Assembly (NCBI GenBank): GCA_964458565.1
Contig: CAYWJO010000035.1
Span: forward strand, 1-36,714
Source: an uncultured archaeon
GTDB lineage: Archaea; Asgardarchaeota; Thorarchaeia; Thorarchaeales; Thorarchaeaceae
Length of the DNA: 36,714 bases
Reading direction: 5' to 3'
The notes below the pieces were generated by a model, which saw only the letters and a program-made list of their open reading frames with translations, searched no databases and was not told where the DNA came from. The first letter of the stretch is position 1. Every line of letters starts with the position of its first letter. This document shows, piece by piece, positions 4,142 to 22,282 of the stretch. The translations under genes were made by a program, and so were the position numbers.

Positions 4142-5521
4142 TTATTCACTCCGTATTGCTTTTCCTTTCATGCGTTTTGGTATTTCTGCACCAATAAACT
4201 CCAATACAGTTGGTGCGATGTCTAGGATGTTCCTAGCTTTCTCTTTGCCCCCAATCCTATCAGGAAATCTGATTACATAGATACCATCCCAGTCATGAAT
4301 GGCGTCATCAGGACCGGTATCATTTTCTGACAGATACATGGATGAGTGGCCCATGCTACCTGCAGCCCTCCAATATAGATCATCGAAGTATACAAGCAAG
4401 TCAGGATAGTAACCATTACACTCACTGTATGCTTCTTCGGGTTTTTCAATACGAGTCGCCCATACTTCACCGTTTGGTCCTCGTATTGTATTCAATTCAT
4501 CAATCAGTTCATTTCTGAAACTCTCATATTCTAAGGCGTTGATTGTACCACTTTTTTCATAACCTTCCACATTGATGAAGATTGTAGCGCAATATCCACC
4601 CCATGCCCAGGCCTTAGTATTAGCCCAATCGACATCAATTTCCGTCAGTGGGACAGGTTTTGATGGAAATTCACGCACCTTCAAAAGACCCTTCTCATAC
4701 AACCATTGATTGATACAAAAGGCACCTTTCATTCCCTTAGCACCGTGATCAGAAGCAAGTACGAATATCGCATCATCTGGTACTAATCGAAGAATCTCTC
4801 CTAATTGTTTGTCTAGCAATCTATAATAATCAATGAAAGCAGGGCTAAGCTCATCATCGTATGTATACAGATGGTGAGATGTATCATAATATCTCCAAAA
4901 GGCATGATGCAATCGATCTGAGCCAATCTCCACCATCGCGAAGAAGTCCCATGGCTCCTTTTCAAGGATGTGTAAAATGGCTAGATGACGCATCTCGGTC
5001 ATCTTAACCAGATTATCCAAAGCTGTTTTCTTGTCCTCTGTACGAAACATGATATCAACAGTGTAGTCTGTAATCTGTTTGATAGTTTCAGCAAATCCCT
5101 TCGGATGTGTTTGAACATCATCAATATCAGGAGTCAATATTCCAGAAACACTGATTCCATTCACCTTCGGGGGAGGATAGGAAGGTGGGATTCCAACGAT
5201 TGCCACCTTGCCACCCATGCTCCCAACTATATCCCATAGTTTTGGAGTCGTGATAGATTGTGAACTAGGAATCCATACTCCTGTGTAATTTCCAGGAATT
5301 CTATGTCTAAATCCATAGAGACCAAGTTGACCTGGATCTTGTCCTGTCATCATACACATCCAGGCTGGAATCGTTACAGGAGGTCGGCAACTTCGGAGAG
5401 GTCCATGATAGCTCTCCTTTATCAGCTTCTGTAAGTTTGGCATATGCGGCAATAGATCATTGAATGCGAGCTTTGGAGGTACGCCATCCCATCCAATGAT
5501 GATGACTTTTTTCATCACCAT
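4142..5521 (-). CDS. Alkaline phosphatase superfamily (type I phosphodiesterase/NPP-like) protein
   Basis: IIGWDG, PPVTIPAW..MMTG..PG.LG, DRLHH, SDHG, C-terminal H..DG and ILDIAPT motifs. Confidence 0.88.
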   Translation of the reverse strand: MVMKKVIIIGWDGVPPKLAFNDLLPHMPNLQKLIKESYHGPLRSCRPPVTIPAWMCMMTGQDPGQLGLYGFRHRIPGNYTGVWIPSSQSITTPKLWDIVGSMGGKVAIVGIPPSYPPPKVNGISVSGILTPDIDDVQTHPKGFAETIKQITDYTVDIMFRTEDKKTALDNLVKMTEMRHLAILHILEKEPWDFFAMVEIGSDRLHHAFWRYYDTSHHLYTYDDELSPAFIDYYRLLDKQLGEILRLVPDDAIFVLASDHGAKGMKGAFCINQWLYEKGLLKVREFPSKPVPLTEIDVDWANTKAWAWGGYCATIFINVEGYEKSGTINALEYESFRNELIDELNTIRGPNGEVWATRIEKPEEAYSECNGYYPDLLVYFDDLYWRAAGSMGHSSMYLSENDTGPDDAIHDWDGIYVIRFPDRIGGKEKARNILDIAPTVLEFIGAEIPKRMKGKAIRSE

Positions 5522-5527
5522 GCAACC

Positions 5528-6673
5528 TCAAGTTACAAAGGGATTACCAAATTTGAGGATCGTCTTTGAGACCTCTTCACGCATCATGTCAACAGGTGGT
5601 ACTTCCCCATTCGCCAACATCTCTCGTATCTTTTTACCTGCAAAGTTCACATGATCCTCCCCACCGTGAGGACAGATCTTATCGTTTGCAATACTATTGC
5701 ATTTCTTGCAGAAGAAGAAAGAACGGAAGAAAACAGGCGTAATCCCCATATCAGGATAATTATCGAAGATGAATTGAGCATCAAATGGTCCGTAGAAGTC
5801 TCCAACGCCAGCATGGTCGCGTCCAACAATGAAATGAGTACATCCAAAGTTCTTACGCATGATTGCATGGTGAATTGCTTCTCTAGGTCCACCATACCGC
5901 ATTTCGGTGTGAAGTACAGCCATTGTTGAGTGTTTACTCAGGTAGTAGTTTTGCATCAATACTTTGTATGATTCGAGAATTACTTCATCAGTGAAGTCTC
6001 CAACCTTTTTCTTGCCAATCAATGGATTGATGAAGATTCCATCAACTATAGACAGTGCGGTCTTCTGAACATATTCATGACCAAGATGGGGAGGATTCCT
6101 TGTCTGGAATGCAACAACAGTTCTCCAACCCTTTTCCTTGAATAGAATCCGAGTTTCTTTTGGATATAGTGTATAGTCAGGGTATGGATTACCCATGTCA
6201 GCAATCATCCGGACTCGGCCACCAAGTAGTTTCTTTTCCATATTATTGATTTTTTCAACACCTGGATGACTTGAGTCATTTGTGAGAAATACAGACTCAA
6301 CGAACTGTTGAGGATTGTATTCATAGATGTCTTCAAGCTCAAGCACAGCAAGAGGCTTACCGTTGTAAGACAACCCAATCATGTCACCATCTGTAATCCC
6401 AGTCAGTTTCGCTGGATTGACATCAAAGACTATTGGGATTGTCCAAGGAGTATCATCAGGAAGTCTTCCGTGTTCCAGAACAGCTTCAAACTCTTCACGG
6501 GTCAAAAAGCCTTCGAGTGGGCTGAAGATACCATGTGCTATGTTATTGATCTCCTGAGCTATTTCTTGACTTATATCAAGAGTAACATAATCTTGAAAGC
6601 TGTCTGTAATTCTTTGGCTTTCCTTTTCGCTGACGAATCTGTCAACTAGTTTTCCACCATGTGGTTGTATCAT
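5528..6673 (-). CDS. sat: Sulfate adenylyltransferase (ATP sulfurylase)
   Basis: PHGGKLV, AFQTRNPPHLGHEY, YGGPREA.HHA..RKNFGCTHFIVGRDHAGVG, CxxC...CPH zinc site. Confidence 0.98.
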   Translation of the reverse strand: MIQPHGGKLVDRFVSEKESQRITDSFQDYVTLDISQEIAQEINNIAHGIFSPLEGFLTREEFEAVLEHGRLPDDTPWTIPIVFDVNPAKLTGITDGDMIGLSYNGKPLAVLELEDIYEYNPQQFVESVFLTNDSSHPGVEKINNMEKKLLGGRVRMIADMGNPYPDYTLYPKETRILFKEKGWRTVVAFQTRNPPHLGHEYVQKTALSIVDGIFINPLIGKKKVGDFTDEVILESYKVLMQNYYLSKHSTMAVLHTEMRYGGPREAIHHAIMRKNFGCTHFIVGRDHAGVGDFYGPFDAQFIFDNYPDMGITPVFFRSFFFCKKCNSIANDKICPHGGEDHVNFAGKKIREMLANGEVPPVDMMREEVSKTILKFGNPFVT

Positions 6674-6685
6674 ATTATATTCCTC

Positions 6686-6922
6686 CTACTCCAAATATCC
6701 CAAAGACCTTAACCGAGCTTTAACTTTTTCCTCGTCCTTCTTTGAGAATGGGTCTTCAGTTTGATTCCCATCCTCGTTTGCAATTAGCTCTCTTAGAATA
6801 TAAGCGACATAGCTAGACACTGAAGTAAAACCAGTTCCTTCAATGCGCTTCTGAACTTTATTGAACAACGGAATAGGAATTGATACCGTTGTGAACTTAC
6901 CCTTTGTTTTCTCGTCTGGCAA
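6686..6922 (-). CDS. Ribbon-helix-helix (CopG-like) transcriptional regulator, ~78 aa
   Basis: TTVSIP..L..KVQKRIEGTGFTSVSSYV.YILRE and C-terminal EEKVKARLRSLGYL. Start reassigned to TTG at 6922, which has a GGAG SD upstream and avoids the overlap with the next gene. Confidence 0.85.
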   Translation of the reverse strand: MPDEKTKGKFTTVSIPIPLFNKVQKRIEGTGFTSVSSYVAYILRELIANEDGNQTEDPFSKKDEEKVKARLRSLGYLE

Positions 6923-6941
6923 TTCTGTTGACTCCTTATAA

Positions 6942-7706
6942 TCACACCATAAATACAACCCAGAGGAGCGTAAATATACCAATGGCAAATGTGGAAAATG
7001 CAACAATTCTCTTGATCAACGGTTGATCAAGCTTGGCTGTTGTCAGTGCAGATAATGGAGCAGCAATCAAAGCACCAATAGTTATTGCAACTGTTTCTAG
7101 AAATAGAGTGGGACCAAGTAATAGAAAATAGATTGCGATACCAAAAGCACAGATAACTGCTTCAACCAGTGCAGTAATTGCCAGAGCAGCTCGTGGTGGA
7201 ATACCACTCAAAATCTGGCCTGAATTTGTGACTGGCCCATATCCTCCACCAGATATGCCCTTGTTGAATGCTGCAACCACTCCGATCAGTCCCAAACGCG
7301 TCCTAGAATATTGGATTTCGCGATTACCGTTAAGGATCATAATCAATCCCATGAGCATTACTACAATTGCGATATAGGACTTTACAATTATCTCTGGTAG
7401 ATTGATATTAGCAAAAGTCGCTACAATAACTCCGAAGATTCCCGTAATCACGAAAATTACGAATGCGGTTTTTTCCTTTTCCTGATTCATAATGTCCATG
7501 TTTTGGAATCGATGATGAAATGCAGCTGCAACTGACGCAGATATGAACTGACTAAACAAAATTACTGGAACCAATATTATTGGACTATACCCAAGAACTA
7601 TCAATACTGGAGATAATGTTGTACCATATCCCATTCCTAGTGCTGCCGCAGCGTATTCTGCGAGAAATGCAATAACTAGGAGCAGTACAAGCAGTTCTGT
7701 CGTCAC
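6942..7706 (-). CDS. TauE/SafE (TSUP) family sulfur-compound transporter
   Basis: LGMGYGTTLSPVL, FNKGISGGGYGP, ~8 TM segments; probable GTG start at 7706. Confidence 0.88.
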   Translation of the reverse strand: MTTELLVLLLVIAFLAEYAAAALGMGYGTTLSPVLIVLGYSPIILVPVILFSQFISASVAAAFHHRFQNMDIMNQEKEKTAFVIFVITGIFGVIVATFANINLPEIIVKSYIAIVVMLMGLIMILNGNREIQYSRTRLGLIGVVAAFNKGISGGGYGPVTNSGQILSGIPPRAALAITALVEAVICAFGIAIYFLLLGPTLFLETVAITIGALIAAPLSALTTAKLDQPLIKRIVAFSTFAIGIFTLLWVVFMV

Positions 7707-7769
7707 TCGAATTCTACACATCCTCTTAATCAAATATGGTATGGTATGATTCGTTATCTCGCTGACGTC

Positions 7770-7784
7770 AATTATATATAATTA
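7770..7784. promoter_or_regulatory. Palindromic box AATTATATATAATT upstream of the TSUP-RHH-sat operon
   Basis: 14-bp perfect palindrome; member of the TAATTA-N4-TAATTA family also at 8152, 8180, 9307 and 9339. Confidence 0.55.
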
Positions 7785-7970
7785 AAGGTTACTAATTGGA
7801 AAATAAAGCATTCATCTGGAATAAAGTGGGTATATTTGTGTGCCAAAATATAGACCATATTAAATCTATTCATTTTGTCTGATAGTTTCAACATGTTACA
7901 CATGATGAATATCAAGGGATATGCAGCCAATCCCAAGCGATATGTGGTTTTATACAAACTAGCATGGATA

Positions 7971-8102
7971 CTATGTTATAGAGATGCTGATTACCCTAAT
8001 TGACATCATTATCAAATCTGTCGATAAGCTAGCTATTAGTATGAAAATCATGATCAACATCAACAAGAAGTTTATTCCAAGCAATATATCAAATCGATTC
8101 AA
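7971..8102 (-). CDS. Possible small hydrophobic protein (43 aa) or gene remnant
   Basis: Manual translation from TTG at 8102: MNRFDILLGINFLLMLIMIFILIASLSTDLIMMSIRVISISIT. It lies just downstream of the 8152-8195 double box. AT-rich DNA can give such ORFs by chance. Confidence 0.3.
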   Translation of the reverse strand: MNRFDILLGINFLLMLIMIFILIASLSTDLIMMSIRVISISIT

Positions 8103-8150
8103 TTATTTCACATCCTGCTAGATGAAATCGCGTTTTCCCAAGACCTGATT

Positions 8151-8195
8151 TTAATTATATATAATTAATACATAAGTACTAATTAAATATAATTA
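8151..8195. promoter_or_regulatory. Pair of TAATTA-N4-TAATTA boxes
   Basis: TTAATTATATATAATTAA (8151-8168, perfect palindrome) and TAATTAAATATAATTA (8180-8195). Confidence 0.6.
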
Positions 8196-8396
8196 TATGA
8201 GTTTCCTTCAGCTGTCGAATCGTTTCAGGCTCAATTGAGTATATCGGATATTCCAGATTCTTCTAAGTCACGTTTCAAATAGAGAATTCAGCATAGAATT
8301 AGCACATTCAATATGATAAAGATAGAAGTAATGAAATTACAATTTCAATATAATAACAAATACTCCTATCTTTCATGCACCTATTAACACCTCTAA

Positions 8397-9155
8397 TTAA
8401 CCTATAATCAATCTGATTATTGTATACAAACCAATCATCAGAGTCCCAATTCCGACTAGGTGTCGGAGTTTCTTGTGTTTTACCTTACTGACTCCTAGCG
8501 CAGAAAGGGGTGTAGCTAATATCGCACCTAAACATATAGACACAGTGACAGATACGATTACGAAATTCCCCGATATGGCATATGTGATTAGACCAAAGAC
8601 ACAGGTTGCTGCTTCTGCTATACTTGTAACTGCTACTGAAGCTTTACTATCTAATCCACTAAGAAGCTGACCAGATACAACAATTGGACCATATCCACCT
8701 CCAGAAATCCCTTTGTTAAATGCGGATAGAAGACCTAAACCCCACAAACGATCTTTTCTAAAAGAAGTTTCTCCATTTCGCGTTAGGATAACCAGAAAAG
8801 CCATGGCGATGACTAACACTGCTATGTATGTCTTGACTATAATGGATGGTAAAGAGACGCTTAATAATACTGCAAACACGGATCCAAAAAGCCCTGTGAT
8901 AATCAGAATCTTAAGTGAAATCCTTGGTTTTTCGTCATTCCTTATGTCGACATTCTTGAATGTCTGATGGAAAAAGCCACCAGTAAATCCTGTGAAGATT
9001 TCACTTAGTAGAATCGCGGGAACTACTAACAAGGGTTCAAATCCGGATAATATTAACAAAGGAGAAAGGACAGTTCCAAAGCCGCCTCCTATTGTCGAAT
9101 CAACAAACTCCATTATGAAAGCTGCTACAATAACCCAAACGATTAGTTCAATCAT
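8397..9155 (-). CDS. TauE/SafE (TSUP) family transporter (paralog of 6942..7706)
   Basis: EFVDSTIGGGFGTVLSPLL, FNKGISGGGYGP; probable start at ATG 9155 (MIELIV). Confidence 0.88.
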   Translation of the reverse strand: MIELIVWVIVAAFIMEFVDSTIGGGFGTVLSPLLILSGFEPLLVVPAILLSEIFTGFTGGFFHQTFKNVDIRNDEKPRISLKILIITGLFGSVFAVLLSVSLPSIIVKTYIAVLVIAMAFLVILTRNGETSFRKDRLWGLGLLSAFNKGISGGGYGPIVVSGQLLSGLDSKASVAVTSIAEAATCVFGLITYAISGNFVIVSVTVSICLGAILATPLSALGVSKVKHKKLRHLVGIGTLMIGLYTIIRLIIG

Positions 9156-9302
9156 ATCACGTCCCCTCATATACGGTCAAATGCTTCAACGACAGGTTTT
9201 TGCATATCAGGAATATGTGACGAGTTTTCCGTATTCGTAGCTAAACAAAAATTGACTTGCATCATGTTTTGATTCACCAGGTGTAATATCATAGAACCGA
9301 GT

Positions 9303-9358
9303 CGTGTAATTATATTTAATTATAAAATCACAAAGGTCTAATTAAATGTAATTACACG
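9303..9358. promoter_or_regulatory. 20-bp inverted repeat built from two TAATTA-N4-TAATTA boxes
   Basis: CGTGTAATTATATTTAATTA (9303-9322) versus the reverse complement of TAATTAAATGTAATTACACG (9339-9358): 19/20 match, 16-bp spacer. Confidence 0.65.
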
Positions 9359-9440
9359 GTCATCACTTTATTCGTGATATATTGGTGAATAGCCCTTCCA
9401 ATAACATGAAGTCAATAAGCAGATAGATAGCAATAACAGA

Positions 9441-11701: not shown

Positions 11702-12112
11702 ATGTCATCTAAAGCAGCACCAATGTATCGCGGTCATAAGCTCGAAGACTTAGCTAAAATGAGTATGGATGAGCTTATTGAACTGCTTCCAACCCGTAGA
11801 AGACGCACTCTCAAACGAGGTTTGCCTTCAAGACAAAAGAAGCTTCTAACCAAGATGAGAGAGGCTCGCAAAGCTCTTCGTAAGGGTAAGGAAGTAGTTG
11901 TCAAGACTCACTGCCGTGATATGGTTATTCTTCCAGAGATGGTCGACCTTACCGTGGCTGTTCATAATGGCAAAGAATTCCAACGCTTCAAAGTCATCCC
12001 TCAGATGATTGGGCATGTGTTGGGCGAGTTCAGTGTGACGACTCGTCAAGTCAAGCATGGTAATCCAGGAATCGGAGCAACAAAGAGCTCTGCTTACGTC
12101 CCATTGAAGTAA
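11702..12112 (+). CDS. rps19: 30S ribosomal protein uS19 (archaeal S19 / eukaryotic S15)
   Basis: YRG..LE.L, RRRRTLKRG, KTHCRDMVILPEMV, HNGKEF, MIGHVLGEFS, VKHGNPGIGATKSS.YVPLK; GGTGA SD upstream. Confidence 0.98.
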   Translation: MSSKAAPMYRGHKLEDLAKMSMDELIELLPTRRRRTLKRGLPSRQKKLLTKMREARKALRKGKEVVVKTHCRDMVILPEMVDLTVAVHNGKEFQRFKVIPQMIGHVLGEFSVTTRQVKHGNPGIGATKSSAYVPLK

Positions 12113-12125
12113 TGGATTATTTGTT

Positions 12126-12170
12126 GAAGAAAAGGACTAATTATAGTCCTCTTCCTCATCATCCTTTTAT
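12126..12170. terminator. Hairpin/pyrimidine tract between convergent rps19 and the SBBP gene
   Basis: AGGACTA-ATTA-TAGTCCT stem-loop followed by CTTCCTCATCATCCTTTT. Confidence 0.55.
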
Positions 12171-15056
12171 CTAAGCAGTATCAACAACAGCGGTTCGCTT
12201 CATGCGATTCCGTATGTATCGAAGCCCTGCAAGAAATACACCAACAGCTGCTCCAATTTGTCCTAGCAAAATAACTAATTGAAGGACATCCAATGATGAA
12301 ATCACGGTATATGTACTAGTTGAAGACACAGCCCAATTACCTTCGCCATCAACCGCGAACACCTTGTATTGAACTGAAACACCTACATTCTGAGGCGAGA
12401 TTCCTGCAGTCCAATGAACTCCCTCTTGTGCCATAGTCACATTAGTCCAAGTACTTCCTCCATCAACTGAATATGATAATTTTGCCTGTGCTACGCCACT
12501 ATCATCGGTAATCGTAGCCGTAACAACAACAGAGTCCACCTCGGTTACTTCGGTTGACGGATCACGCGAAGTGACTATGTTGGGACCTGTATTATCCGCT
12601 GGAATTGTCGTATATGATCTAGTTGAGGAATAAACCTCATTGTTTGAAGTGTCGGTTGCCATAATTCTGTACTCTACAAGATTTCCAACAGCATAAGTTG
12701 GTATCACTCCGGTCCAGTTGTCAGCTAGAATGTTAATCATCGGGACATTCACCCAATTTTCATCATTTCTATGTTGAAGAGTCACTGTGTCAACATCTAC
12801 ATTATCTGTCACTATGGCACTGATAGTAACCTCATCTTCTTCAGTCGGTTCTAAGATATCACGCTCTACTGAACTGATTATAGGAGATATCATATCATTG
12901 GAAAAGCGTGCCAGGAAGGCATCCAAATCTCCATTATGAGATGAGTCATATGGAGGGTTTCCCATTATCGGGAAATCTGATGAATTCGTTTGTCCACAGA
13001 AAATAAGATCCATATCACTATCAAAGCCACATCCAATTCTCATTCTGTCATTTTCGCTTCCACCGAAGTATGTTGAATAAAGGAGTTCAGTGCAATCGTA
13101 GCTGATCTTTGAAATAAAACAATCAGTATTACCCCCATTAAAGGAGGAATCATATGCATTCATTACAGGGAAATCCTCAGATGATGTGGTTCCTGAGATA
13201 AGAATATTGGCTTGACTGTCGAGGAGAATACCTGTCACTTGTTCATCACCGGATCCTCCAATATATGTTGCGAATTCCAGAGTTGTGCCTTGTGGACTTA
13301 ATTTGGCAACAAAGCCATCTGCACCAAGATCCTCTGTATCCCCACCACCACCACTACTGGTATATCCAAAAACTCCTGGGGTTGTTGGGAACCCAGCCCC
13401 AGCCTCTCCTACAATGTATACTGCCCCATTGTAGTCTATTGCCATTCCAAATGCTCGATCGATAGCGTTACCCCCGATGTATGTGGAGAAATACATTGTT
13501 GTGGCAAACGTGTTTATTCTCATAACAAAGCAATCATATTGGTCTGTTGATTCAGGTTGAACAACACCATCAGTGACTGGAAAATTATCCGAGTCTGTAT
13601 AACCTGCGATATACAGGAATTCATTGTCATAGGGGTCGGTGTACAATTCAATCGCATATGCGGTATCATCCAAGCTACCATTCATTACAAATGACCAGTG
13701 AATAAAATCTCCATTAACATTCAAGGCGAATGCAAAACCGTCCCGGTCAGATGCACCAGGACTACACGGATTTTTAAAACCATTTACAATTGGGAAATCA
13801 TTGGATTCTGTAAATCCGGTAACGAAAACATGTGCGCCATCGATACCAATGGGTTTTAGCTCAAGATTAATTGCAACATCATCCGCAGAGCCTCCAACAA
13901 ATGTTGAATAGACAAGCGTATTGCCACTTGGGGTGAACCTGAGTACCACAACGTCAATTGCCCCGTTGGAACTCTCATTAAACGCACCTGTAGTTACAGG
14001 AAAGTCCGGAGAATTTGAATATCCAGTGACGTAGATGTTGTTATTAGGATCAACATCTACGTCAGTTGCCATATCTAGATTGATTCCACCAACATATGTA
14101 ACAAAGAGTATATTGCCGCCCCTATCGAACTTTGCAATAAAGATGTCTCTGAAGCCCCCAAATGTTTCATTGTAACCAGCAAGAAATGGGAAATCTGAAG
14201 ACTCGGTCCAACCCACCATAATTATATCATCATTAGCATCGATTACTAGTTCAAAACCTACATCTTCATTGGATCCACCGAGATATGTGGAGAAGAGAAG
14301 CGGGTCGATAACAAGCTTCTTTGTAGTATCAAAGTCACCAAGTTCAAAGCCATAATGGTTAGAATCAATGTGTTTAAAGTTGGCATCAATGGTTATGTCA
14401 TCTTGGAATACAAGTAACTCATTATCTGTGAGCACAGCCTTTTCACTTACTATCGTGATAGATTCATCGTTAATTTCAAGAGCGTCATGACCGATAACAT
14501 GGACTTTGATTAAAGATGGATCTGAACCTGGATAAACATGAAACTCGTACTTTGCCCCTCGTTCTGTACCTACATACACCAGATCTATGCCAGACCATAG
14601 GTTTCTATAGATGGCTCCTTCGTAAACTCTGACATCAGTGAATGTGCCACGATCACCCAAGAAGTAATTTGTATATTGACTAGATGGATTCAATCCAGCT
14701 GGTTTTACTCCTTTTGCATCCTCAAAGATTAATGTGATACCTTCTTTTGAGCCTTCCAACCAAAGAAGTATTTTATCTTCTGCAAAACCAATCATTCCAT
14801 CCGGGATGTGTCCATAGTATAACACCTCGGAATTATCGATTTGTCCTAAATTCTCATAGAAATGGCCCAATACATCTTGATTTTCCGAAGTCATTTTCTG
14901 CTGGACATCAGGTAATATTGCATCAGAGTCATTTTCTGCTAAGCGAGAACCCGACGTAGTTAGCGCTGACGGAATTATCAAACACATGGTCAATAGATTC
15001 ATCGTCAATGTTACAAGAAAAGCTATTTTTACAAACCCGGATGGCTTCATCTTCAA
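12171..15056 (-). CDS. Large cell-surface protein: signal peptide, SBBP (beta-propeller) repeats, two Ig-like domains, C-terminal TM anchor
   Basis: FYENLGQ N-domain, IDPLLFSTYLGGSNED, repeated (Y/F)ST(Y/F).GG..D...G.T.S.DFP units, two P.I....V.A..TD...V..V.L.Y modules, TM + RYIRNRMKR tail. Confidence 0.85.
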   Translation of the reverse strand: MKMKPSGFVKIAFLVTLTMNLLTMCLIIPSALTTSGSRLAENDSDAILPDVQQKMTSENQDVLGHFYENLGQIDNSEVLYYGHIPDGMIGFAEDKILLWLEGSKEGITLIFEDAKGVKPAGLNPSSQYTNYFLGDRGTFTDVRVYEGAIYRNLWSGIDLVYVGTERGAKYEFHVYPGSDPSLIKVHVIGHDALEINDESITIVSEKAVLTDNELLVFQDDITIDANFKHIDSNHYGFELGDFDTTKKLVIDPLLFSTYLGGSNEDVGFELVIDANDDIIMVGWTESSDFPFLAGYNETFGGFRDIFIAKFDRGGNILFVTYVGGINLDMATDVDVDPNNNIYVTGYSNSPDFPVTTGAFNESSNGAIDVVVLRFTPSGNTLVYSTFVGGSADDVAINLELKPIGIDGAHVFVTGFTESNDFPIVNGFKNPCSPGASDRDGFAFALNVNGDFIHWSFVMNGSLDDTAYAIELYTDPYDNEFLYIAGYTDSDNFPVTDGVVQPESTDQYDCFVMRINTFATTMYFSTYIGGNAIDRAFGMAIDYNGAVYIVGEAGAGFPTTPGVFGYTSSGGGGDTEDLGADGFVAKLSPQGTTLEFATYIGGSGDEQVTGILLDSQANILISGTTSSEDFPVMNAYDSSFNGGNTDCFISKISYDCTELLYSTYFGGSENDRMRIGCGFDSDMDLIFCGQTNSSDFPIMGNPPYDSSHNGDLDAFLARFSNDMISPIISSVERDILEPTEEDEVTISAIVTDNVDVDTVTLQHRNDENWVNVPMINILADNWTGVIPTYAVGNLVEYRIMATDTSNNEVYSSTRSYTTIPADNTGPNIVTSRDPSTEVTEVDSVVVTATITDDSGVAQAKLSYSVDGGSTWTNVTMAQEGVHWTAGISPQNVGVSVQYKVFAVDGEGNWAVSSTSTYTVISSLDVLQLVILLGQIGAAVGVFLAGLRYIRNRMKRTAVVDTA

Positions 15057-15192
15057 TCCTCTCTTTTTGCATCCTACGTTCTCTTCGTTGAGGAATATAA
15101 CTATCTGCGAATTGAGTTCCCTTGAGCATCAAACCACGATATTATCATAACCGCAGTGTCTTCGAGGATATAAATTCATTGATGTTGTGAAG

Positions 15193-15273
15193 AGTGTGAC
15201 GCCTCGTCAAGTCAAGCACGGAAACCCGGGAGTAGGAGCGACCAAAAGTTCTGTGTATGTTCCACTGAAGTAA
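15193..15273 (+). repeat. Diverged copy of the last 27 codons of rps19 (12032-12112)
   Basis: Translates SVTPRQVKHGNPGVGATKSSVYVPLK* versus resident SVTTRQVKHGNPGIGATKSSAYVPLK*. Manual count: 65/81 nt identical, 11 synonymous and 3 non-synonymous codon changes. Confidence 0.97.
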
Positions 15274-15407
15274 TGAGTGTTTTATCTTTGAGAAGGGTCA
15301 TTATGCATCCTTTTCTATTCTCTTTGTTTTAAGTAATGCTCATCACGACTTGGCTGTTTAGCAAAATAACGTAAATAATATAATGATAAGTTGATATAAT
15401 ATCGAAT

Positions 15408-15956
15408 ATGCATAGTGGGATACATTCGTTCGATATTGTCATGATTTTGTTAATTGTGTTTAGTGGGTTCAATTCAATATACACTGTGACAGGTGGTGAG
15501 GGTTTTATAGAAGCTACCGTAAAACCGTATGATTATGGTGGTGGTCGACGTACTGCAGGTGTGGGAGACAGGTATACAGGAAGATTCTCTGCGAATAAGT
15601 TTCCGATTGATTTCTTCATCATCGATCCAGAAGATGTTGGACCAAACTGGAGCTACTCGATAGATGCAGCTTATGAAGTACAATCAGGAATGAATGGCAC
15701 ATTTTACTTTGTGGTGCCGTATCCAGGAGATTGGCTCTTCATGTGTTATAATCCCAATCCAGAAAAGCAGACTGTAAGAATAGAGTATATAATTCGCACC
15801 TTCAGTGATGATGTTCAGGTAGGTATGCAGGTTTTTCTCTTCGAAGCACTTGTAGTAGGAATTGGAATGGGATGTTGGAGATATACGAAGAGAAGGGTGA
15901 GAAGAGAAAGAGAGACGGATATATTCAGGGATCAGAAAGATTCTAACGATATATGA
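15408..15956 (+). CDS. Type I membrane protein with GOLD/emp24-like beta-sandwich
   Basis: N-terminal hydrophobic stretch, IDFFIIDP...GTFYFVVPYPGDWLFMCYNPN..KQTVRIEY, C-terminal TM and basic tail. Confidence 0.6.
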   Translation: MHSGIHSFDIVMILLIVFSGFNSIYTVTGGEGFIEATVKPYDYGGGRRTAGVGDRYTGRFSANKFPIDFFIIDPEDVGPNWSYSIDAAYEVQSGMNGTFYFVVPYPGDWLFMCYNPNPEKQTVRIEYIIRTFSDDVQVGMQVFLFEALVVGIGMGCWRYTKRRVRRERETDIFRDQKDSNDI

Positions 15957-16036
15957 AAACGCGATAAAACAAGTTACAAATCACCATCTAAGAATTGTAG
16001 GGATTTAAATCACAAGATTTCGCTAACGCCATGAAA

Positions 16037-16086
16037 CAGGTGAAGCACGGCAGCCCAGGTATTGGAGCAACAAAGAGCTCTGCTTA
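16037..16086 (+). repeat. Partial copy of the rps19 3' region (left half)
   Basis: Translates QVKHGSPGIGATKSSA. 16064-16086 is a 23-nt exact match to 12074-12096. Weak similarity may extend back to 16016 (DF vs EF). Confidence 0.93.
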
Positions 16087-16161
16087 ATAATTCCACTTTC
16101 CATTTTTTAAGGAAATTATTTAAACCACGATTCAATATTATATGGCTAAGTCCATTAGGAC

Positions 16162-18531
16162 TTGAATGTGGGTAAGGAGCATAAGAAGTTGTTAAAAAAC
16201 AAACTATCTCCCGTTTCTAGGAAGTGGTCATTTCGATTCTTTGTTTTTGTCATCATTTTGTTGGTGGCTGGAATCCAGACAGGACCCTTCCAAGAGGAAC
16301 CGCAGACTGAAATCTTTGTAGAAGAGTGTTCAAGGTCATTCACTCAGGATTCATTATGTATCACTTTGAAGATGAGTAGTAATGCAAAGACTGCTATTAC
16401 TACAAAGTGCAAACTAATAATCCCTATTGAATTCGTAGAGAGAATGAAGTCCGACGGAGTCTACGAAGAAACACCCTACATGCTGAAAGCGACGAAGGGT
16501 ATCGAGAGCAATTGGTTTACAATAGACAATGGTCAATCAAAAGAATGTGTCTTTGAAATTCCAGTGAAAACACCTTTCATTGAGAGCGAATGGTATGACC
16601 TGATTATTACTTGGAATTCTTGGCAATTTCCTTTTGGAATGACTACAAATACACGAACTATCAGGATTACACCTTTTGAGGAAGTTGAACCAGAACCTGA
16701 GATGGTGATGGATAACGGATTTAGTATAGCATACGATCCGGATGGTGAGCCCAGGTATCCCGATATCAGGGCTACTGCAGTATCTCTGGTATATTCATCG
16801 CTATACAAGGGTGATCAAGCTCACGCTAGGATTACTGTTCGTAACTATGGTACAGGTTCAGGTACTCCCTATCTGAATGTTCAAGTAAAAGAACTATCTG
16901 GACTTTACATTGGCTTTGACAGGGGAGTATGGTCAGCATATGGGAATGGTGTTTCCGGAGGTTCTACTGTATCTCCGGGATACTCTAAGACATATGATTT
17001 CTATTTTGGTCCGATTCTCTATGACAGCAATCGGGGAATCTGGGCACTCAATGGTCGAAGAAGCTATGTCGATGCCTCAGTACAGACCATGAGCTACAGA
17101 ATCGCAACAGTTCGCGTAAAGAGTTATTATGGTGGCTCATTCTGGGCTACAAGGGAAAACTCATTCACAACGGACTTCACAGTGAGTCAACATCCAACAA
17201 CTCCACGAATACTGACTGCTGTAGTTGATGATGAATACTTCACATACAATCCTGCTACCTTCTGTGAAGAGGCAGTGGACTTTCCCTTAAGGATAGGAAG
17301 CCCAACATATACCGGACCACAGACCACGTTTGAGGCTCTGTTTGGCTTGGACTTCAGGTTCTATGATGTAGGTGATTACGATTGGCCTTGGTACCAGACT
17401 TGGGATATCAATAACTGGGAGGCACTTCAAGTCACAAGATCGGCGCTAGGTGATCTTCTATCTCTGGGTTGTGATTGGGTGTCAGCAGGTGTGAATATCC
17501 AATCAAGTAGTATCGAAGACATGGCAGGTACTATGCGAGAAAATCATGGTTTTGACCTTGGTTTGGGACTATTCTATGCATATAATGGACCTCGTGGAAT
17601 GAGCTATCAAAATGGAAATTATCATGAAGTCATTGGTGCATGGAATTGGGACCATTACAAGGAGTGTCTTATTCATGAGATATGCCATGGCTTTAGTGCG
17701 CGTCATGGTGACCAGTACCCTACAAAATTTGGACCGTATGAAGATGGTCTCACATACGTCATGGGGGGTGGAGATGGCAATGATTTTAATTCATGGACTC
17801 CCTGTTGGAGAATGAATCCACAAGTGGAAACGGAAATCAATGGTGAAGGGCATCTGAGACAATACAATGGCGCAGCACCTCCAAGTGGTCTGTATGGATA
17901 TGGACAATGGAGATGCTATGCTCCCTTTGGTCTGGAAACTCCCCAGTATCAAATCTACAGGCTCTCAAGTTCCTCGTCCTATGTTCAGGGTAACGGAGGT
18001 TCTCTGTTTACACGATTCAATGTGATTGAAGGACACTTGGGATCACCTGATCCCGTCCCAACTTGGTGGCGAGTGACTGAGGTTGACGCAAATATCGTCT
18101 ATCCGAACGTTGCTTATTTCTACGTTGCATATCACATGCAATGGAGTTCTGATCATTGGCCAACAGGATTCTCTCCTGCAAATGGTATGGACTTCTGGTA
18201 TGATATTGAACTGTATCACTACGCTAAGCAGATAATCTCCTCAGTGACCAATGTCGACATAAAAATCAACTCCGGTCTCACTGGAACCGTGACTAACTAC
18301 TATTCCCGCAACTTTCTATCGAATAACCCTCAATCGGGATCTGGTGAAGATATCACAAATTGCTACAGGCAGTGGGGTCATGCAAGAATAAATCCTATCA
18401 ATATCGCTGATGCAGACGGTAATGTCTACTTCTTAGTAGGGTTCTATGATTGTTGGAGCTATGACTGGTTGCAGAGACTAGATGTTCATCCACAATTTAT
18501 GCAGTTTGAATACAACCTTGGTACGTGGTAA
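16162..18531 (+). CDS. Secreted/membrane-anchored metzincin-like zinc metalloprotease with CARDB-like domain
   Basis: N-terminal TM FFVFVIILLVAG; PDI...GD...ITVRNYG module; HEICHGFSARH zinc motif and downstream YVMG Met-turn. Exact start uncertain. Confidence 0.7.
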   Translation: MNVGKEHKKLLKNKLSPVSRKWSFRFFVFVIILLVAGIQTGPFQEEPQTEIFVEECSRSFTQDSLCITLKMSSNAKTAITTKCKLIIPIEFVERMKSDGVYEETPYMLKATKGIESNWFTIDNGQSKECVFEIPVKTPFIESEWYDLIITWNSWQFPFGMTTNTRTIRITPFEEVEPEPEMVMDNGFSIAYDPDGEPRYPDIRATAVSLVYSSLYKGDQAHARITVRNYGTGSGTPYLNVQVKELSGLYIGFDRGVWSAYGNGVSGGSTVSPGYSKTYDFYFGPILYDSNRGIWALNGRRSYVDASVQTMSYRIATVRVKSYYGGSFWATRENSFTTDFTVSQHPTTPRILTAVVDDEYFTYNPATFCEEAVDFPLRIGSPTYTGPQTTFEALFGLDFRFYDVGDYDWPWYQTWDINNWEALQVTRSALGDLLSLGCDWVSAGVNIQSSSIEDMAGTMRENHGFDLGLGLFYAYNGPRGMSYQNGNYHEVIGAWNWDHYKECLIHEICHGFSARHGDQYPTKFGPYEDGLTYVMGGGDGNDFNSWTPCWRMNPQVETEINGEGHLRQYNGAAPPSGLYGYGQWRCYAPFGLETPQYQIYRLSSSSSYVQGNGGSLFTRFNVIEGHLGSPDPVPTWWRVTEVDANIVYPNVAYFYVAYHMQWSSDHWPTGFSPANGMDFWYDIELYHYAKQIISSVTNVDIKINSGLTGTVTNYYSRNFLSNNPQSGSGEDITNCYRQWGHARINPINIADADGNVYFLVGFYDCWSYDWLQRLDVHPQFMQFEYNLGTW

Positions 18532-18544
18532 CGTTTTGACCTTA

Positions 18545-18587
18545 TGGACAGGCTAAATCTTATAGTCTGTCCAACTTTTTCTTTTTT
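18545..18587 (+). terminator. Hairpin plus T-tract after the metalloprotease gene
   Basis: TGGACAGGCTA-AATCTTA-TAGTCTGTCCA (one G-U pair on the + strand) then ACTTTTTCTTTTTT. Confidence 0.7.
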
Positions 18588-18642
18588 ACTCAAATCAAAA
18601 TGAAGAGGTCTTGTGATATCATTCAAGTGTATTATTTACATT

Positions 18643-18717
18643 CGTACCATTGAAGTAATGGATTTTTTTGAGAAGAAAAGGAGTAATCACAGTCCTCTTC
18701 CTCATTATCCATTTATC
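18643..18717 (+). repeat. Copy of the rps19 terminal codons plus downstream intergenic sequence (right half)
   Basis: Ungapped match to 12097-12171, 65/75 nt by manual count. It begins exactly where the 16037-16086 copy stops. Confidence 0.95.
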
Positions 18718-18821
18718 AAAGAATTAGTCTAAATAACAGATTTTACCAAAATTGTATCGTTCTACATAAATTGATTAAAGAGGTCATCTACATCTATGTT
18801 ATTATTAGCAGAGAGAGTGTG

Positions 18822-20618
18822 ATGAATGATGTGAGAAAATCAATTATTGATGGATTAGAATGGCCAACCGAAGAACTCAAGATGGCTGTCAAGAATCTTG
18901 ATAAGGGCAATAGAAGCAATATAGTAGAACTTGGAGATAATGTAATTGATATAACTGATGATTTCGAATCTAGATTTCTTTTGTTAATATTCATGCCTAG
19001 CATTAAACTGATCGGATTAGATCTATGGCTTGAAAGATGGAAGACTAAGAATTGGGGAGGTGTTTTTGCACGGGCTTTGAAAAGTAAATATGATGATCAC
19101 ATTTGTCTTCAATACATCTTTACTTATGCTAGGCAACTGACAATAATTAGTCCACTCTGGATGGTGCTCATCCCCGCGTTCCTGTCCCTTCTGGATTTAT
19201 TTGTGCTGAGTTATCCAGATACGGTTGTTGCATATCTTCCCCTGTTACTATATGGAGTGATACTCCATTTGGGAGACACTGTTTCTAGATTTCGTTTTAG
19301 AAGTAGTACAGTACTGATTTTCTTTTGGCTCCTCGAATTCATTAGAATTGATCCTTCCTTCGAGTATATCCCTTCCCTAATTATGGGATCATGCGCCTTG
19401 ATATCTGGAGTATTATGGACATATAACTTCATTTTGAAGCGGTCTGGAACCCCAGGTTCTCACTCAATGGATTATATTCCGGTCTTTATTTGGCTTCGTC
19501 ATCATGACATCTTGTATGGCAATTATCAATACTGGCATATGGAAAAAGCTAGTTGGGATGTGTTACATTACAAAGGAGTCGAACTGGATCGTGAACAAAT
19601 AGCTAAAAATGTTTGGAGATTGGTCACCGGGGACGAAAACTGGGACCCATTTTTGAAAGCGTTTGGAATGAATCGTTTGAAACTAGAGATAGATAATTCT
19701 TGGCATTCATTAACTCGTTCAAGGCATGTTGAGAACTATGAGATTAGTAAGGGGACACATGTATCAGACCGCATAACCACTTGGAGAGGTTTGTTGATAC
19801 GAACTCTAGTTGTGGCATGCTTTTTTGTGATAGCATGGGTTTCCTCAATCTTTGTAATCCCAGCATATCTCTACGCGTTCGTCGTATTATGGCTCATTGT
19901 TGAATTCTCACGTATTCGTTTCGATTTGTATGAAGAGCAATCTTCTACACTCGAGAAGATTCAGTGGCTATACACATTCAATCTCTTATCACTTCAGACA
20001 AGACATACGGAGATGATGATTGAGATATTTGAAGATGCATTGGAATGTAATGTGGAACACCTTGATGATGTCATGAAAAAACTAGAAGAATTCGAAACTG
20101 GATACTCAGCATTACAGGACATGGTCTATGATAAATACAAAATTGGACTCATGTACGGTTTGATGAGTATAAACTCAAAAATTCAGAATGCAGTTCCTTT
20201 ACAAGCTCACGTAAACAAAATTAGAAATTCATTGCATGAAAAAGCACAATCCACTCAAGATGACAGATATATAACTTTAGCAATGAAGTGTGAGAAGATC
20301 CATTCAGGAATAATAACACTTTACGGCCTTGCAAAACTAGGTAAAAAGAATGTAAATTTAGAAAAACCGATTGAAGAAATTGACAAACTATGGAAAAATC
20401 TTCAACTGACCTATATCAATGATGCACATTTGATAATTTTATGGAATTTAGGTTCATCACCTCTTGAAGAGAAGACCAAGAGTAGTGATGACTTTAGAGA
20501 GAACTTGAGAGATAGATGGGTTACACGTGAAAAGGAAGCTGAGAAAGCTCAGTTTTTAGTAAGGAAAAAAATACAAAATCCCTTTACTATGAAGTTTGAT
20601 TCATTCTTAGATGACTAG
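18822..20618 (+). CDS. Hypothetical multi-pass membrane protein with helical C-terminal region
   Basis: ~600-codon open frame with about 6 hydrophobic segments; no family recognised; start at 18819/18822 is more plausible than 18771. Confidence 0.7.
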   Translation: MNDVRKSIIDGLEWPTEELKMAVKNLDKGNRSNIVELGDNVIDITDDFESRFLLLIFMPSIKLIGLDLWLERWKTKNWGGVFARALKSKYDDHICLQYIFTYARQLTIISPLWMVLIPAFLSLLDLFVLSYPDTVVAYLPLLLYGVILHLGDTVSRFRFRSSTVLIFFWLLEFIRIDPSFEYIPSLIMGSCALISGVLWTYNFILKRSGTPGSHSMDYIPVFIWLRHHDILYGNYQYWHMEKASWDVLHYKGVELDREQIAKNVWRLVTGDENWDPFLKAFGMNRLKLEIDNSWHSLTRSRHVENYEISKGTHVSDRITTWRGLLIRTLVVACFFVIAWVSSIFVIPAYLYAFVVLWLIVEFSRIRFDLYEEQSSTLEKIQWLYTFNLLSLQTRHTEMMIEIFEDALECNVEHLDDVMKKLEEFETGYSALQDMVYDKYKIGLMYGLMSINSKIQNAVPLQAHVNKIRNSLHEKAQSTQDDRYITLAMKCEKIHSGIITLYGLAKLGKKNVNLEKPIEEIDKLWKNLQLTYINDAHLIILWNLGSSPLEEKTKSSDDFRENLRDRWVTREKEAEKAQFLVRKKIQNPFTMKFDSFLDD

Positions 20619-20715
20619 TGATATTAGCTAGAAAAGATATTGAATATTAGAAGAGAAACATAATCTACGTTATTAGAACCAGTTTTCACCCAGCGCTTAA
20701 AACAAATGGGGTGAA

Positions 20716-21045
20716 TCACATTGGTTTCATGTGGATGTTACTCATCAAACGGACGAAATCAAAATCGATATTCATCTCTCGCATTTTTTCAGGGTCAACA
20801 TGATAGAGGGGTTGTCTCATATCGTGAAGATTTGCCACACGTCTGCACAGGCGGTTATCGGTCAAATTCTTCAAGGCATTAGTAACAGTACGGGGAGACA
20901 ATCGAACATAGCCACGTATCTGTTTGGGAGTCATTGGACCTTGAGTAGCTAATTGATACAATACAACCAGAGCGCTCATTGGAAGAGAAGACAACTTCAT
21001 CACCTCTTTCATCAGTATTCGTTTTTGAATACGGCTTGGCAACAT
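20716..21045 (-). CDS. Small winged-helix (MarR/ArsR-like) regulator
   Basis: LPMSALVVLYQL...GPMTPKQI....LSPRTVTNALKNL....L..R..NLHDMRQ.LY; true start may be an internal Met. Confidence 0.8.
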   Translation of the reverse strand: MLPSRIQKRILMKEVMKLSSLPMSALVVLYQLATQGPMTPKQIRGYVRLSPRTVTNALKNLTDNRLCRRVANLHDMRQPLYHVDPEKMREMNIDFDFVRLMSNIHMKPM

Positions 21046-21208
21046 TTTATGGTCGATTTTGCCAGATAAACATACGGCAAATTACTAATAACTATTTTGC
21101 CATCAGCAATCATCGACTGAGTATGAGTCATGTTCAAAAAGAAGGGAGTACCGAACAAATTGAGGACGTGATATCCTGACAAGAAGAAGCAACGTTGACC
21201 GCAAGGAT

Positions 21209-22282
21209 TTGAGAATTCTTGCTGCATTGGACAGATTAGGAGGCAATGCATCAGCTCAGGAAATCAGCGACGAGATAGAAAAATCACACAAATTGAGGAT
21301 TCCAGCAAGGACTATCAGATACAGATTATCCATGATGATGGAGAGAGGGATATTACTTCCATCATTCTTACAGAGTCAAGAGAGGATAATCGGACTTGGT
21401 GAAAAAGTGATTATCGTCCAAGAACATGGGGGAATAAGTGAAGAACTCGAGAAAGTGATTGAGGCAATACCAATCTTTTACTGGTACGTTCCGACACATG
21501 GACACTACGACGGATATCTCATCCATGCAGTCTATGATACAAAGAATCCTAAATTGCACGAGATGATTTTGAAAAGGCTTCAGAAGAAACAACTCATCGA
21601 TAGTTATAGTGAGTTTGAGATTGTGGATTATGAGAGTAAAAGAGTAGATTTCACAAAATATGGACCTAGCGGCAGATGGTCGTGGGATTGGGAAAAATGG
21701 ATAAAGAATATCCCAACCAATATGGAATCTGAAGAGGGAAGTCCCCATAGTATGATAGCGGAATACAAGACCATTGATTGTGATGCAGCCGATATTGAAA
21801 TACTGAAGCAGCTGAAACTAGATCCCGAGGTTTCTATGACAACTCTCTCGCTGTTGTTAAACCAGTCAATCAACCAAGTGCGAGACAAGGTACAACGATT
21901 TCGTGATAATGGCGTAATTAGAGGATCAAAGAGAGCGTATGGTTTTGCGGGAGACCTGCTTTGGTTCTCAACATTCATTGAGATTGAGGAATCAGTCAAT
22001 GGAGTTTTGAAAAACTTCTACGACTTACCCTTCCCCGGGGTTGTACTTATGGAGAACCCAAAGAAATTCTGCTTCCGTTTCGGTCTGGAAACCACAGACC
22101 TGAAGAGATTTTTGGAAGGATTTAGACTCATGCGGGGGAAACTGAAATCTTACTTCTTCCAATTTCACCTTCCGGACAGAATAGAATCGAGCTATCAGGA
22201 CATCTTTTCATTATTTGATAGTACTAGTAATAGATGGAATATGCCATTGGATGAGTATCTCAAAATTATAGATCGATTCTGA
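21209..22282 (+). CDS. Lrp/AsnC-like regulator with two wHTH-containing halves
   Basis: N-terminal HTH (SAQEI...RTIRYRL..M.ERG) and second D..DIEILKQL..D...S...LS...VRDKVQRF...GVI unit; start may lie upstream. Confidence 0.75.
   Translation: MRILAALDRLGGNASAQEISDEIEKSHKLRIPARTIRYRLSMMMERGILLPSFLQSQERIIGLGEKVIIVQEHGGISEELEKVIEAIPIFYWYVPTHGHYDGYLIHAVYDTKNPKLHEMILKRLQKKQLIDSYSEFEIVDYESKRVDFTKYGPSGRWSWDWEKWIKNIPTNMESEEGSPHSMIAEYKTIDCDAADIEILKQLKLDPEVSMTTLSLLLNQSINQVRDKVQRFRDNGVIRGSKRAYGFAGDLLWFSTFIEIEESVNGVLKNFYDLPFPGVVLMENPKKFCFRFGLETTDLKRFLEGFRLMRGKLKSYFFQFHLPDRIESSYQDIFSLFDSTSNRWNMPLDEYLKIIDRF

Follow-up and report, generated by a model that had tools for sequence, protein, structure and literature searches.

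Behind rps19, the gene for ribosomal protein uS19, a genome of the Thorarchaeota, an Asgard group, carries a row of cargo genes separated by displaced copies of the 3′ end of rps19 itself. The row occupies positions 12113-~20700 of the 36,714-nt stretch analyzed here (the window, which is the entire 36.7-kb contig C35 of the source genome). Because its structural features match the model described for the WHO elements at the yeast gene FBA1 (PMC7282813), we read it as a tail-replacement cassette array formed by homology-directed repair, with a LAGLIDADG-type endonuclease as the probable initiator; we regard this reading as reasonably probable. The window has the only S19 match in the source genome. 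The gene sits behind a TPR gene, outside the ribosomal-protein operon, a placement that is kept family-wide. By synteny clustering, the upstream order f4-f10-TPR-rps19 is conserved across the family, and the conserved set of downstream genes lies at a variable distance from rps19.

Three stretches of the window (copies A, B, and C; Table 1) match the resident rps19 tail in direct orientation, and a further copy, the fifth, lies on contig C6. Repeat search and genome-wide blastn (E from 1e-8 to 1e-21) recover the window's copies where a first-pass annotation, made from the sequence alone, had placed them. Copy B stops 13 nt short of the rps19 stop codon: Its 3′ end reads ...GCTTA, and copy C opens at the next reference base (CGT...). 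Since B ends one base before C begins, B and C are a single displaced tail, split in two by a 2556-bp insert. One gene lies between successive copies. No structured RNA or tRNA was found in the window, Rfam included, and no attC-like RNA or DNA family.

The copies differ from the resident tail mainly at synonymous positions. We count 11 synonymous and three nonsynonymous codons in copy A (within codons 111-136), seven and one in B+C, and nine and zero in the C6 copy, or 27 versus four when pooled. Because the differences are mostly synonymous, we take the tail copies to have been functional ends elsewhere and not decayed local duplicates; the first-pass annotation had reached the same count and conclusion for the copy at 15193. 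Hairpins stand behind three of the copies (z from -2.8 to -4.2), among them the one previously noted downstream from 18643, and a weaker one behind copy A.

A layout of this kind could also come from misassembly, that is, from a contig in which different strains were joined at the rps19 tail repeats. The source genome is a metagenome-assembled genome (MAG) of 3.7 Mb in 93 contigs with 5% contamination, contigs of relatives frequently break at rps19 tail repeats, and exact-protein look-ups of cassette 2 and metagenome pattern scans gave no independent support for the junctions at copies A and B. We nevertheless hold a chimera to be extremely improbable. Seven contigs from other samples reproduce two junction regions at 99.9-100% identity: the junction of rps19 and cassette 1 in four samples, and the region 17290-21443 (insert end, copy C, and cassette 4) in three. 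The copies, at 75-85% identity, are too diverged to mislead an assembler, and a like architecture is present on long contigs of many genomes.

We compared the region behind rps19 across relatives gathered by an S19 protein search of 40 relatives together with named Thorarchaeota contigs (G000 denotes the source genome, other G numbers the genomes of relatives, L numbers fetched loci, and C numbers contigs). Displaced rps19 tails occur in at least 14 Thorarchaeota genomes, with a maximum of eight per array, and in none of 45 loci from other archaeal phyla (L087-L098 and L100-L132). L072 (= G079) has six fragments within 10 kb and eight on the whole contig, against two in L069 and a single one in each of L070, L075, L077, and L082. 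Fragments of the 3′ end also lie behind rps19 in G005 and G020, displaced tails were found in G006 and G077, and G001, G002, and G008 hold orphan fragments, those of the latter two at contig ends, where rps19 itself is frequently found. The units between fragments comprise one or two genes of diverse functions, including beta-helix/NosD-like and papain-like surface proteins, an ABC transporter pair, and a TPR-nitrilase. G019 has an empty site, where the conserved gene f3 comes directly after rps19. The rps19 hotspot is a trait of the whole Thorarchaeota family. Both cargo and repeat number vary, and these arrays, with the pair of loci described next, bear out the earlier proposal of a repeatedly used insertion site at which a replacement end is supplied and the old one displaced.

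The loci L069 and L070 differ by one 1236-bp cassette (a single 368-aa open reading frame [ORF]), which in L069 stands between rps19 and the tail that is functional in L070. The trailer behind the functional rps19 of L070 is the trailer behind the first displaced tail of L069. New units therefore enter beside rps19, and the old end is pushed outward; this order, with the newest unit adjacent to the gene, is shown by relatives rather than by the window's own cassettes. Identity between the two loci is lower upstream of the junction (85%) than downstream (94%), the outcome expected if the upstream flank was co-converted with DNA of a more distant donor.

The 5′ and 3′ parts of rps19 have different histories. 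Among 43 distinct Thorarchaeota rps19 genes, we compared the first 324 nt with the last 84 nt: The pair L084/L011 is 94.4% identical in the former and 77.4% in the latter, and L077/L080 89.8% and 59.5%, with the opposite pattern in L010/L066 (89.5% and 97.6%). Mismatches in 27 close pairs run at ~0.10 through nt 312. From nt 313 (codon 105), in the zone where the displaced copies start, the rate rises two- to threefold and lies at 0.2-0.39 for the rest of the gene. Mean third-position identity falls from 0.47 in the 5′ part to 0.36 in the tail. Some displaced tails clearly came from elsewhere: For the L075 fragment, identity is 62% with the resident tail but 83% with that of another lineage.

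This pattern also bears on whether a tyrosine or serine recombinase, acting in trans or since lost, integrated the cassettes site-specifically, with the rps19 tail as attB and a cassette circle as attP, so that the array would be a tandem accretion as at tRNA genes or integrons. A restored gene end, a displaced old end, and tandem accretion are the classic layout of integrative elements, and the left boundaries of the displaced copies are fairly regular, starting at residues ~102-117 across arrays. The tail, however, lacks a conserved DNA core. Synonymous positions there vary slightly more than in the rest of the gene and are thus unconstrained, which argues against a conserved recombinase core site. 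A TGACG-N3-CGTCA dyad at the repeat boundary in the window is missing from the tails of other lineages, and the lack of an attC-like family noted above points the same way. Neither PF00589 nor PF16795 has a match in the window. Genome-wide, PF00589 matches once, on contig C53, and SSV-type integrases not at all; the C53 tyrosine recombinase has no homologue in the ~100 fetched loci (tblastn). In a PF00589 search that took in 24 relatives, eight of 15 family genomes gave no match at all, including the array-bearing G005 and G001, and the matches in the remaining family genomes never fall on the rps19 contig. Integrase and transposase domains are absent from the cassette ORFs scanned individually. 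At least three unrelated genes of this genome share the architecture (see below), which one recombinase could hardly serve. We therefore rate site-specific integration as very unlikely. The first-pass annotation was correct that the window lacks an integrase, and its suggested check for tyrosine recombinases near rps19 came back negative on every rps19 contig of the 15 family genomes; the trans-acting recombinase that it offered as one possible mechanism is poorly supported, given the missing core in the tail and the many array genomes that lack a tyrosine recombinase match.

The eight genomes without a PF00589 match are 91%-98% complete. This raises the question of how their chromosome dimers are resolved, or whether XerA is too diverged for the model.

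What does recur behind rps19 is a nuclease of LAGLIDADG fold. At 3.3 kb behind rps19, L054/G077 has a minus-strand operon of three genes, for a 1020-aa ATPase (weakly HerA-like), a 1242-aa protein with weak helix-turn-helix (HTH) matches, and a 217-aa protein, gene X. A displaced rps19 tail is found 16.2 kb downstream on the same contig of G077, so that rps19 and its old end flank a 16-kb insert in which the operon lies. In G021/L052 and L079, tblastn places gene X and the giant protein's C-terminal region immediately after rps19 and convergent to it; a gene X homologue lies behind rps19 in G001; and in G006 a decayed copy of X and the nuclease follows rps19 and is itself followed by a degenerate displaced tail.

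A conserved C-terminal domain of ~360 aa defines the nuclease family, which comprises ~300 clusters at 50% identity, with proteins of 330-1600 aa and variable N-termini, and which is present in 15 of 24 family genomes, often in several copies. The domain has two conserved LAGLIDADG-type motifs, SDGH and EDG, with D98/G99 conserved (45 sequences). Its AlphaFold2 model (predicted local distance difference test [pLDDT] 89, predicted template modeling score [pTM] 0.86) has the predicted two-lobed alpha-beta-beta-alpha-beta-beta-alpha fold of LAGLIDADG enzymes with two acidic-ended helices. The top Foldseek matches in the PDB are all LAGLIDADG endonucleases at probability 1.0 (7qsu, 2dch, 1dq3, PI-SceI, I-OnuI, and I-DmoI; among them are the TliVMA intein endonuclease, I-Tsp061I, and PI-PfuI).

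Intein-type LAGLIDADG proteins (PF14528, searched in 60 family genomes) were considered as a candidate and set aside. The best seven free-looking matches are not near rps19 or a tail copy, and they resemble inteins in conserved proteins of ~1000 aa. A hidden Markov model built from them found nothing in the rps19 loci, the nuclease family described here being too diverged for that model.

The same architecture is seen at other genes of the source genome. On contig C25 (L158, G000:C25:28000-46000), a class-V aminotransferase gene is directly followed at its 3′ end by the gene for a 372-aa member of the nuclease family, and beyond the nuclease gene lie two cargo genes and a displaced copy of the last 60 codons of the aminotransferase (53% amino acid identity, E 5e-19). 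This is a complete nuclease-bearing tail-replacement unit. On contig C6 (L032 = G000:C6:101000-116891), a cassette carrying an rps19 tail is placed at a second anchor gene, etfA, whose displaced tail (~130 nt, 69% nucleotide identity) closes the unit; no nuclease is present there. The two loci together indicate that tail displacement is general in this genome and that the mobility gene, where there is one, is a LAGLIDADG-fold nuclease.

A second gene of the nuclease family (472 aa, cut by the contig end) was seen on contig C77 (L157, G000:C77:1-8685; 6535-8683). It is accompanied by a gene X homologue and is convergent to a two-component-system operon, and a 123-nt inverted copy of the gene X 3′ end lies at 6135-6256.

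In the mechanism that we favor for the window, each event would import a block from the chromosome of another lineage, in which a foreign stretch covering the final ~28 codons of rps19 is followed by its terminator and a single cargo gene. A stand-alone LAGLIDADG endonuclease that cuts around codons 105-116 in susceptible rps19 tail alleles would probably set off the event. The incoming tail, spelled with other codons, would escape cutting, and repair would use the displaced tail as its homology arm on the right. rps19 would be kept intact, with the previous tail moved downstream as a dead copy and the newest cassette adjoining the gene. Cassettes that carry no nuclease may spread when the DNA between the donor's full and displaced tails is copied along, or the nuclease gene may be lost later. 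That the enzyme cuts rps19 is an inference, and so, because the window itself has no nuclease gene, is its action at this locus. Homology-anchored uptake from relatives, the other mechanism offered in the first-pass annotation, is closer to the evidence: The data favor homology-directed repair, with the LAGLIDADG nuclease seen at this site in relatives as the probable trigger.

The main rival is homologous recombination with no part for a nuclease, the rps19 tail and its displaced copies acting as short homology arms. A circle of one tail and one cargo gene could re-integrate in Campbell fashion, or a double crossover with linear DNA could occur, and the nucleases near rps19 would then be merely another cargo. 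Plain recombination between tail copies explains both layout and mosaicism. Every cassette is flanked by direct repeats, copy A and the resident tail have a single mismatch in their first 26 nt, as for a crossover tract, most arrays have no nuclease gene, and several conserved genes of this genome have the same layout. On the other hand, copies within one array are 70%-90% identical over ~80 nt, which makes them a poor RadA-type substrate. The rival also leaves unexplained why a LAGLIDADG-fold nuclease recurs behind rps19 in several genera and on C25, and why synonymous and amino acid diversity rises exactly at the swap boundary. On balance we find recombination without a nuclease unlikely, though it is to be taken seriously.

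Several observations weigh against repair started by a nuclease. Neither a nuclease gene nor a remnant of one is present in the window, and the arrays of L072, G005, and G020 likewise have no nuclease gene. Members of the nuclease family sit mostly at loci other than rps19, Pfam models stay below threshold for the nuclease domain, and cleavage of rps19 by these enzymes is a prediction. The mosaic tails and the ordered array are also what homologous recombination between tail copies would produce by itself, and the split of B from C by the 2556-bp insert is a separate event, outside all the models considered.

A broader reading, which we put forward tentatively, is that Thorarchaeota run a general integrase-free form of gene capture, in which LAGLIDADG nucleases open the ends of conserved or essential genes such as rps19, etfA, and the aminotransferase gene and cassettes without a nuclease are mobilized in trans. 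Repair may then import a re-spelled end together with adjacent surface, defense, or metabolic cargo from one lineage to another, so that housekeeping gene ends would serve as integron-like platforms, and the nuclease family may be diversifying through its variable DNA-binding N-termini.

The cargo of the window is surface, membrane, or secreted protein (Table 1). The 961-aa protein of cassette 1 has a signal peptide and a C-terminal membrane anchor, and Pfam upholds its earlier label as an SBBP protein. Two other labels are less firm: The GOLD/EMP24-like fold of the 182-aa protein is a lead only (Atlas 0.92 to a cluster in which 19% of members have EMP24/GOLD), and the 789-aa protein is labeled a metalloprotease for its HEICH motif, with weak leads from Atlas. 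The 2556-bp insert that carries the latter has ends that are unique in the genome, and we saw no terminal repeats or target-site duplication at them. The first-pass description of single-gene envelope cassettes does not extend to the relatives, whose units hold one or two genes and include other cargo and probably a his operon (across a contig break; see below).

The ~600-aa membrane protein of cassette 4 has paralogues in this genome only, on contigs C6 and C30, at 24%-26% identity. No displaced rps19 tail was found beyond it, and it is either the oldest cassette or the former neighbor of rps19. The variable island ends at the MarR-like gene that follows, with which the conserved downstream flank (f40-f17-f2...) opens.

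Table 1. Features of the rps19 array and of related loci in the source genome (window positions unless another locus is named)
Feature	Position	Strand	Basis or remarks
Intact rps19 (uS19, 136 aa), anchor gene	11702-12112	+	Pfam PF00203, E 1e-30
Swap zone, rps19 codons ~105-136, exchanged per event (proposed)	12014-12112	+	Divergence profile and copy start points
Terminator-like hairpin and trailer of current rps19 tail	12113-12180	+	z -2.9; recurs after copy C and the C6 copy
Cassette 1 (newest): 961-aa surface protein, DUF7948 and SBBP beta-propeller repeats	12171-15056	-	Pfam
Displaced tail A: codons 111-136, stop, own weak hairpin	15193-15296	+	Versus 12032-12135, 75% over 104 nt
Cassette 2: 182-aa membrane-anchored protein	15408-15956	+	
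Displaced tail B, left part: codons ~116-132	16037-16086	+	Versus 12047-12096, 84%
One-gene insert dividing the B/C tail, 2556 bp	16087-18642	+	Own terminator hairpin
789-aa secreted/anchored protein, HEICH motif	16162-18531	+	Inside the 2556-bp insert
Displaced tail C, right part: last 13 coding nt, stop, hairpin, trailer	18643-18726	+	Versus 12097-12180, 85%; hairpin z -2.8
Cassette 4: multi-pass membrane protein, 598-615 aa	18771-20618	+	
MarR-like gene, first of conserved downstream flank	20716-21045	-	Synteny clustering, Pfam MarR
C25 unit: aminotransferase, nuclease (8305-9423), GTPase/Schlafen-AlbA protein, 220-aa ORF, displaced tail (5142-5321)	5142-10661 of L158		
C6 layout: etfB-etfA (intact), 630-aa SBBP protein, rps19 tail and hairpin, displaced etfA tail	~9900-13341 of L032	-	
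Noncoding repeat on C1	245977-246025, 249505-249583, 255024-255102, 13284-13350 of contig G000:C1		

The SBBP/DUF7948 family has more than 12 paralogues in the genome (on C1, C7, C39, C45, C46, C54, C64, and other contigs), and by self-blast several of them adjoin other repeated gene-end fragments. Paralogues of the 789-aa HEICH protein adjoin SBBP paralogues on C64 and C1. On C1, a noncoding repeat of ~70-130 nt (opening AGGTACTGTGCGAGCC...) occurs four times beside SBBP-family genes. We rejected a simple gene tail as its explanation, the repeat being a longer noncoding one beside SBBP genes; it may mark another cassette system.

An orphan rps19 tail copy in G001 (L037/L047, G001:C11 and C33) is closely preceded by a full hisGDCBHAFI operon. 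Because a run of the small-gene family f6 is present on both G001 contigs, a position inside the rps19 island is suggested, by a link that spans the contig break; rps19 and a displaced tail in G001 are thus probably separated by an entire his operon.

In the source genome, the ribosomal-protein operon slot that rps19 usually takes is filled by an unrelated 132-aa ORF (L160, G000:C1:44848-48246, ORF 799-1197), flanked by uL22 and by an ORF in the uL2 position, where uL2 is assigned by position; the relocated rps19 is common to the family. The closed chromosome of G081 (CP070658.1) has two full-length rps19 matches, 1263512-1263919 (-) and 1318584-1318991 (+), in inverted orientation with 55 kb between them.

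If gene capture of this kind operates, genes would be acquired without an integrase or transposase in the closest prokaryotic relatives of eukaryotes, and a selfish nuclease together with ordinary repair would allow accessory genes to stack up at the end of an essential gene. On this reading, the arrays account for the frequent breaks of Thorarchaeota MAG contigs at rps19 and other conserved gene ends, for differences in surface-protein repertoire between close lineages, and for the discordance between the phylogeny of the rps19 3′ end and that of its 5′ part, which matters for marker-gene trees.

Our literature search found no published description of rps19 or gene-tail cassette arrays in Asgard archaea. 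The kind of process is known from yeast WHO elements, fungal mitochondrial mORFs, and phage intronless homing; for archaea, our search turned up no version in which ordinary cargo is stacked. In the fungal mORFs and in the intronless homing of T4-like phages (SegF and MobE), a free-standing homing nuclease stands beside a conserved gene and repair co-converts the flanks, and mORFs supply the host gene with a replacement C-terminus. To our knowledge, neither builds long arrays of nuclease-free cargo cassettes.

The Thorarchaeota arrays share with tRNA/tmRNA 3′-end islands and additive flexible genomic islands a restored gene end, a displaced old end, and accumulation at a hotspot. Those islands use element-borne integrases, whereas none was found for the rps19 array, whose units are single genes. 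With integrons, including archaeal ones (Ghaly et al. 2022, PMC9668308), they share a fixed insertion point, cassettes of one or two genes with the newest first, and a closing repeat. Unlike integrons, they have no IntI, attI, or attC, their repeats are direct copies of a coding gene end, and their cassettes lie in either orientation with promoters and terminators of their own. The term integron-like, used in the first-pass annotation, therefore holds for function and not for machinery.

The closest parallel is with the WHO elements at FBA1 of Torulaspora and Lachancea yeasts (Coughlan et al. 2020, PMC7282813; bioRxiv 10.64898/2026.08.13.744650). WHO insertion replaces the 3′ end of an essential gene and sends the old end downstream, and repeated insertion gives a tandem cluster with the newest element beside the full-length gene (PMC7282813). 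The 3′ part of the target gene is hyper-diverse and discordant, the displaced fragment serves as a homology arm, and the enzyme is of LAGLIDADG type (PMC7282813). The Thorarchaeota loci have the same direct-orientation displaced 3′ ends downstream of a full-length gene (in the window and at least 14 related genomes), a 3′ part of rps19 that is more diverse than the 5′ part and discordant in history, with a breakpoint at codon ~105, and a LAGLIDADG fold, in the nuclease of relatives, with no integrase. They differ in that the host is an archaeon with no meiosis, the target is rps19 along with other genes, and the nuclease gene within the unit is missing in the window, although present in G021, L079, G077, G006 (as a remnant), and C25. 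The WHO enzyme is an intein-zinc-finger fusion; the Thorarchaeota nuclease is a stand-alone protein with long, variable, HTH-rich N-termini, linked to the small gene X and sometimes to a HerA-like ATPase. Thorarchaeota units also carry mostly ordinary cargo (surface proteins, transporters, and probably a his operon) with no nuclease or remnant. If our reading is right, WHO homing, until now a phenomenon of a few yeasts and the presumed source of the HO endonuclease, would extend to archaea, and elements of the WHO type could carry useful cargo.

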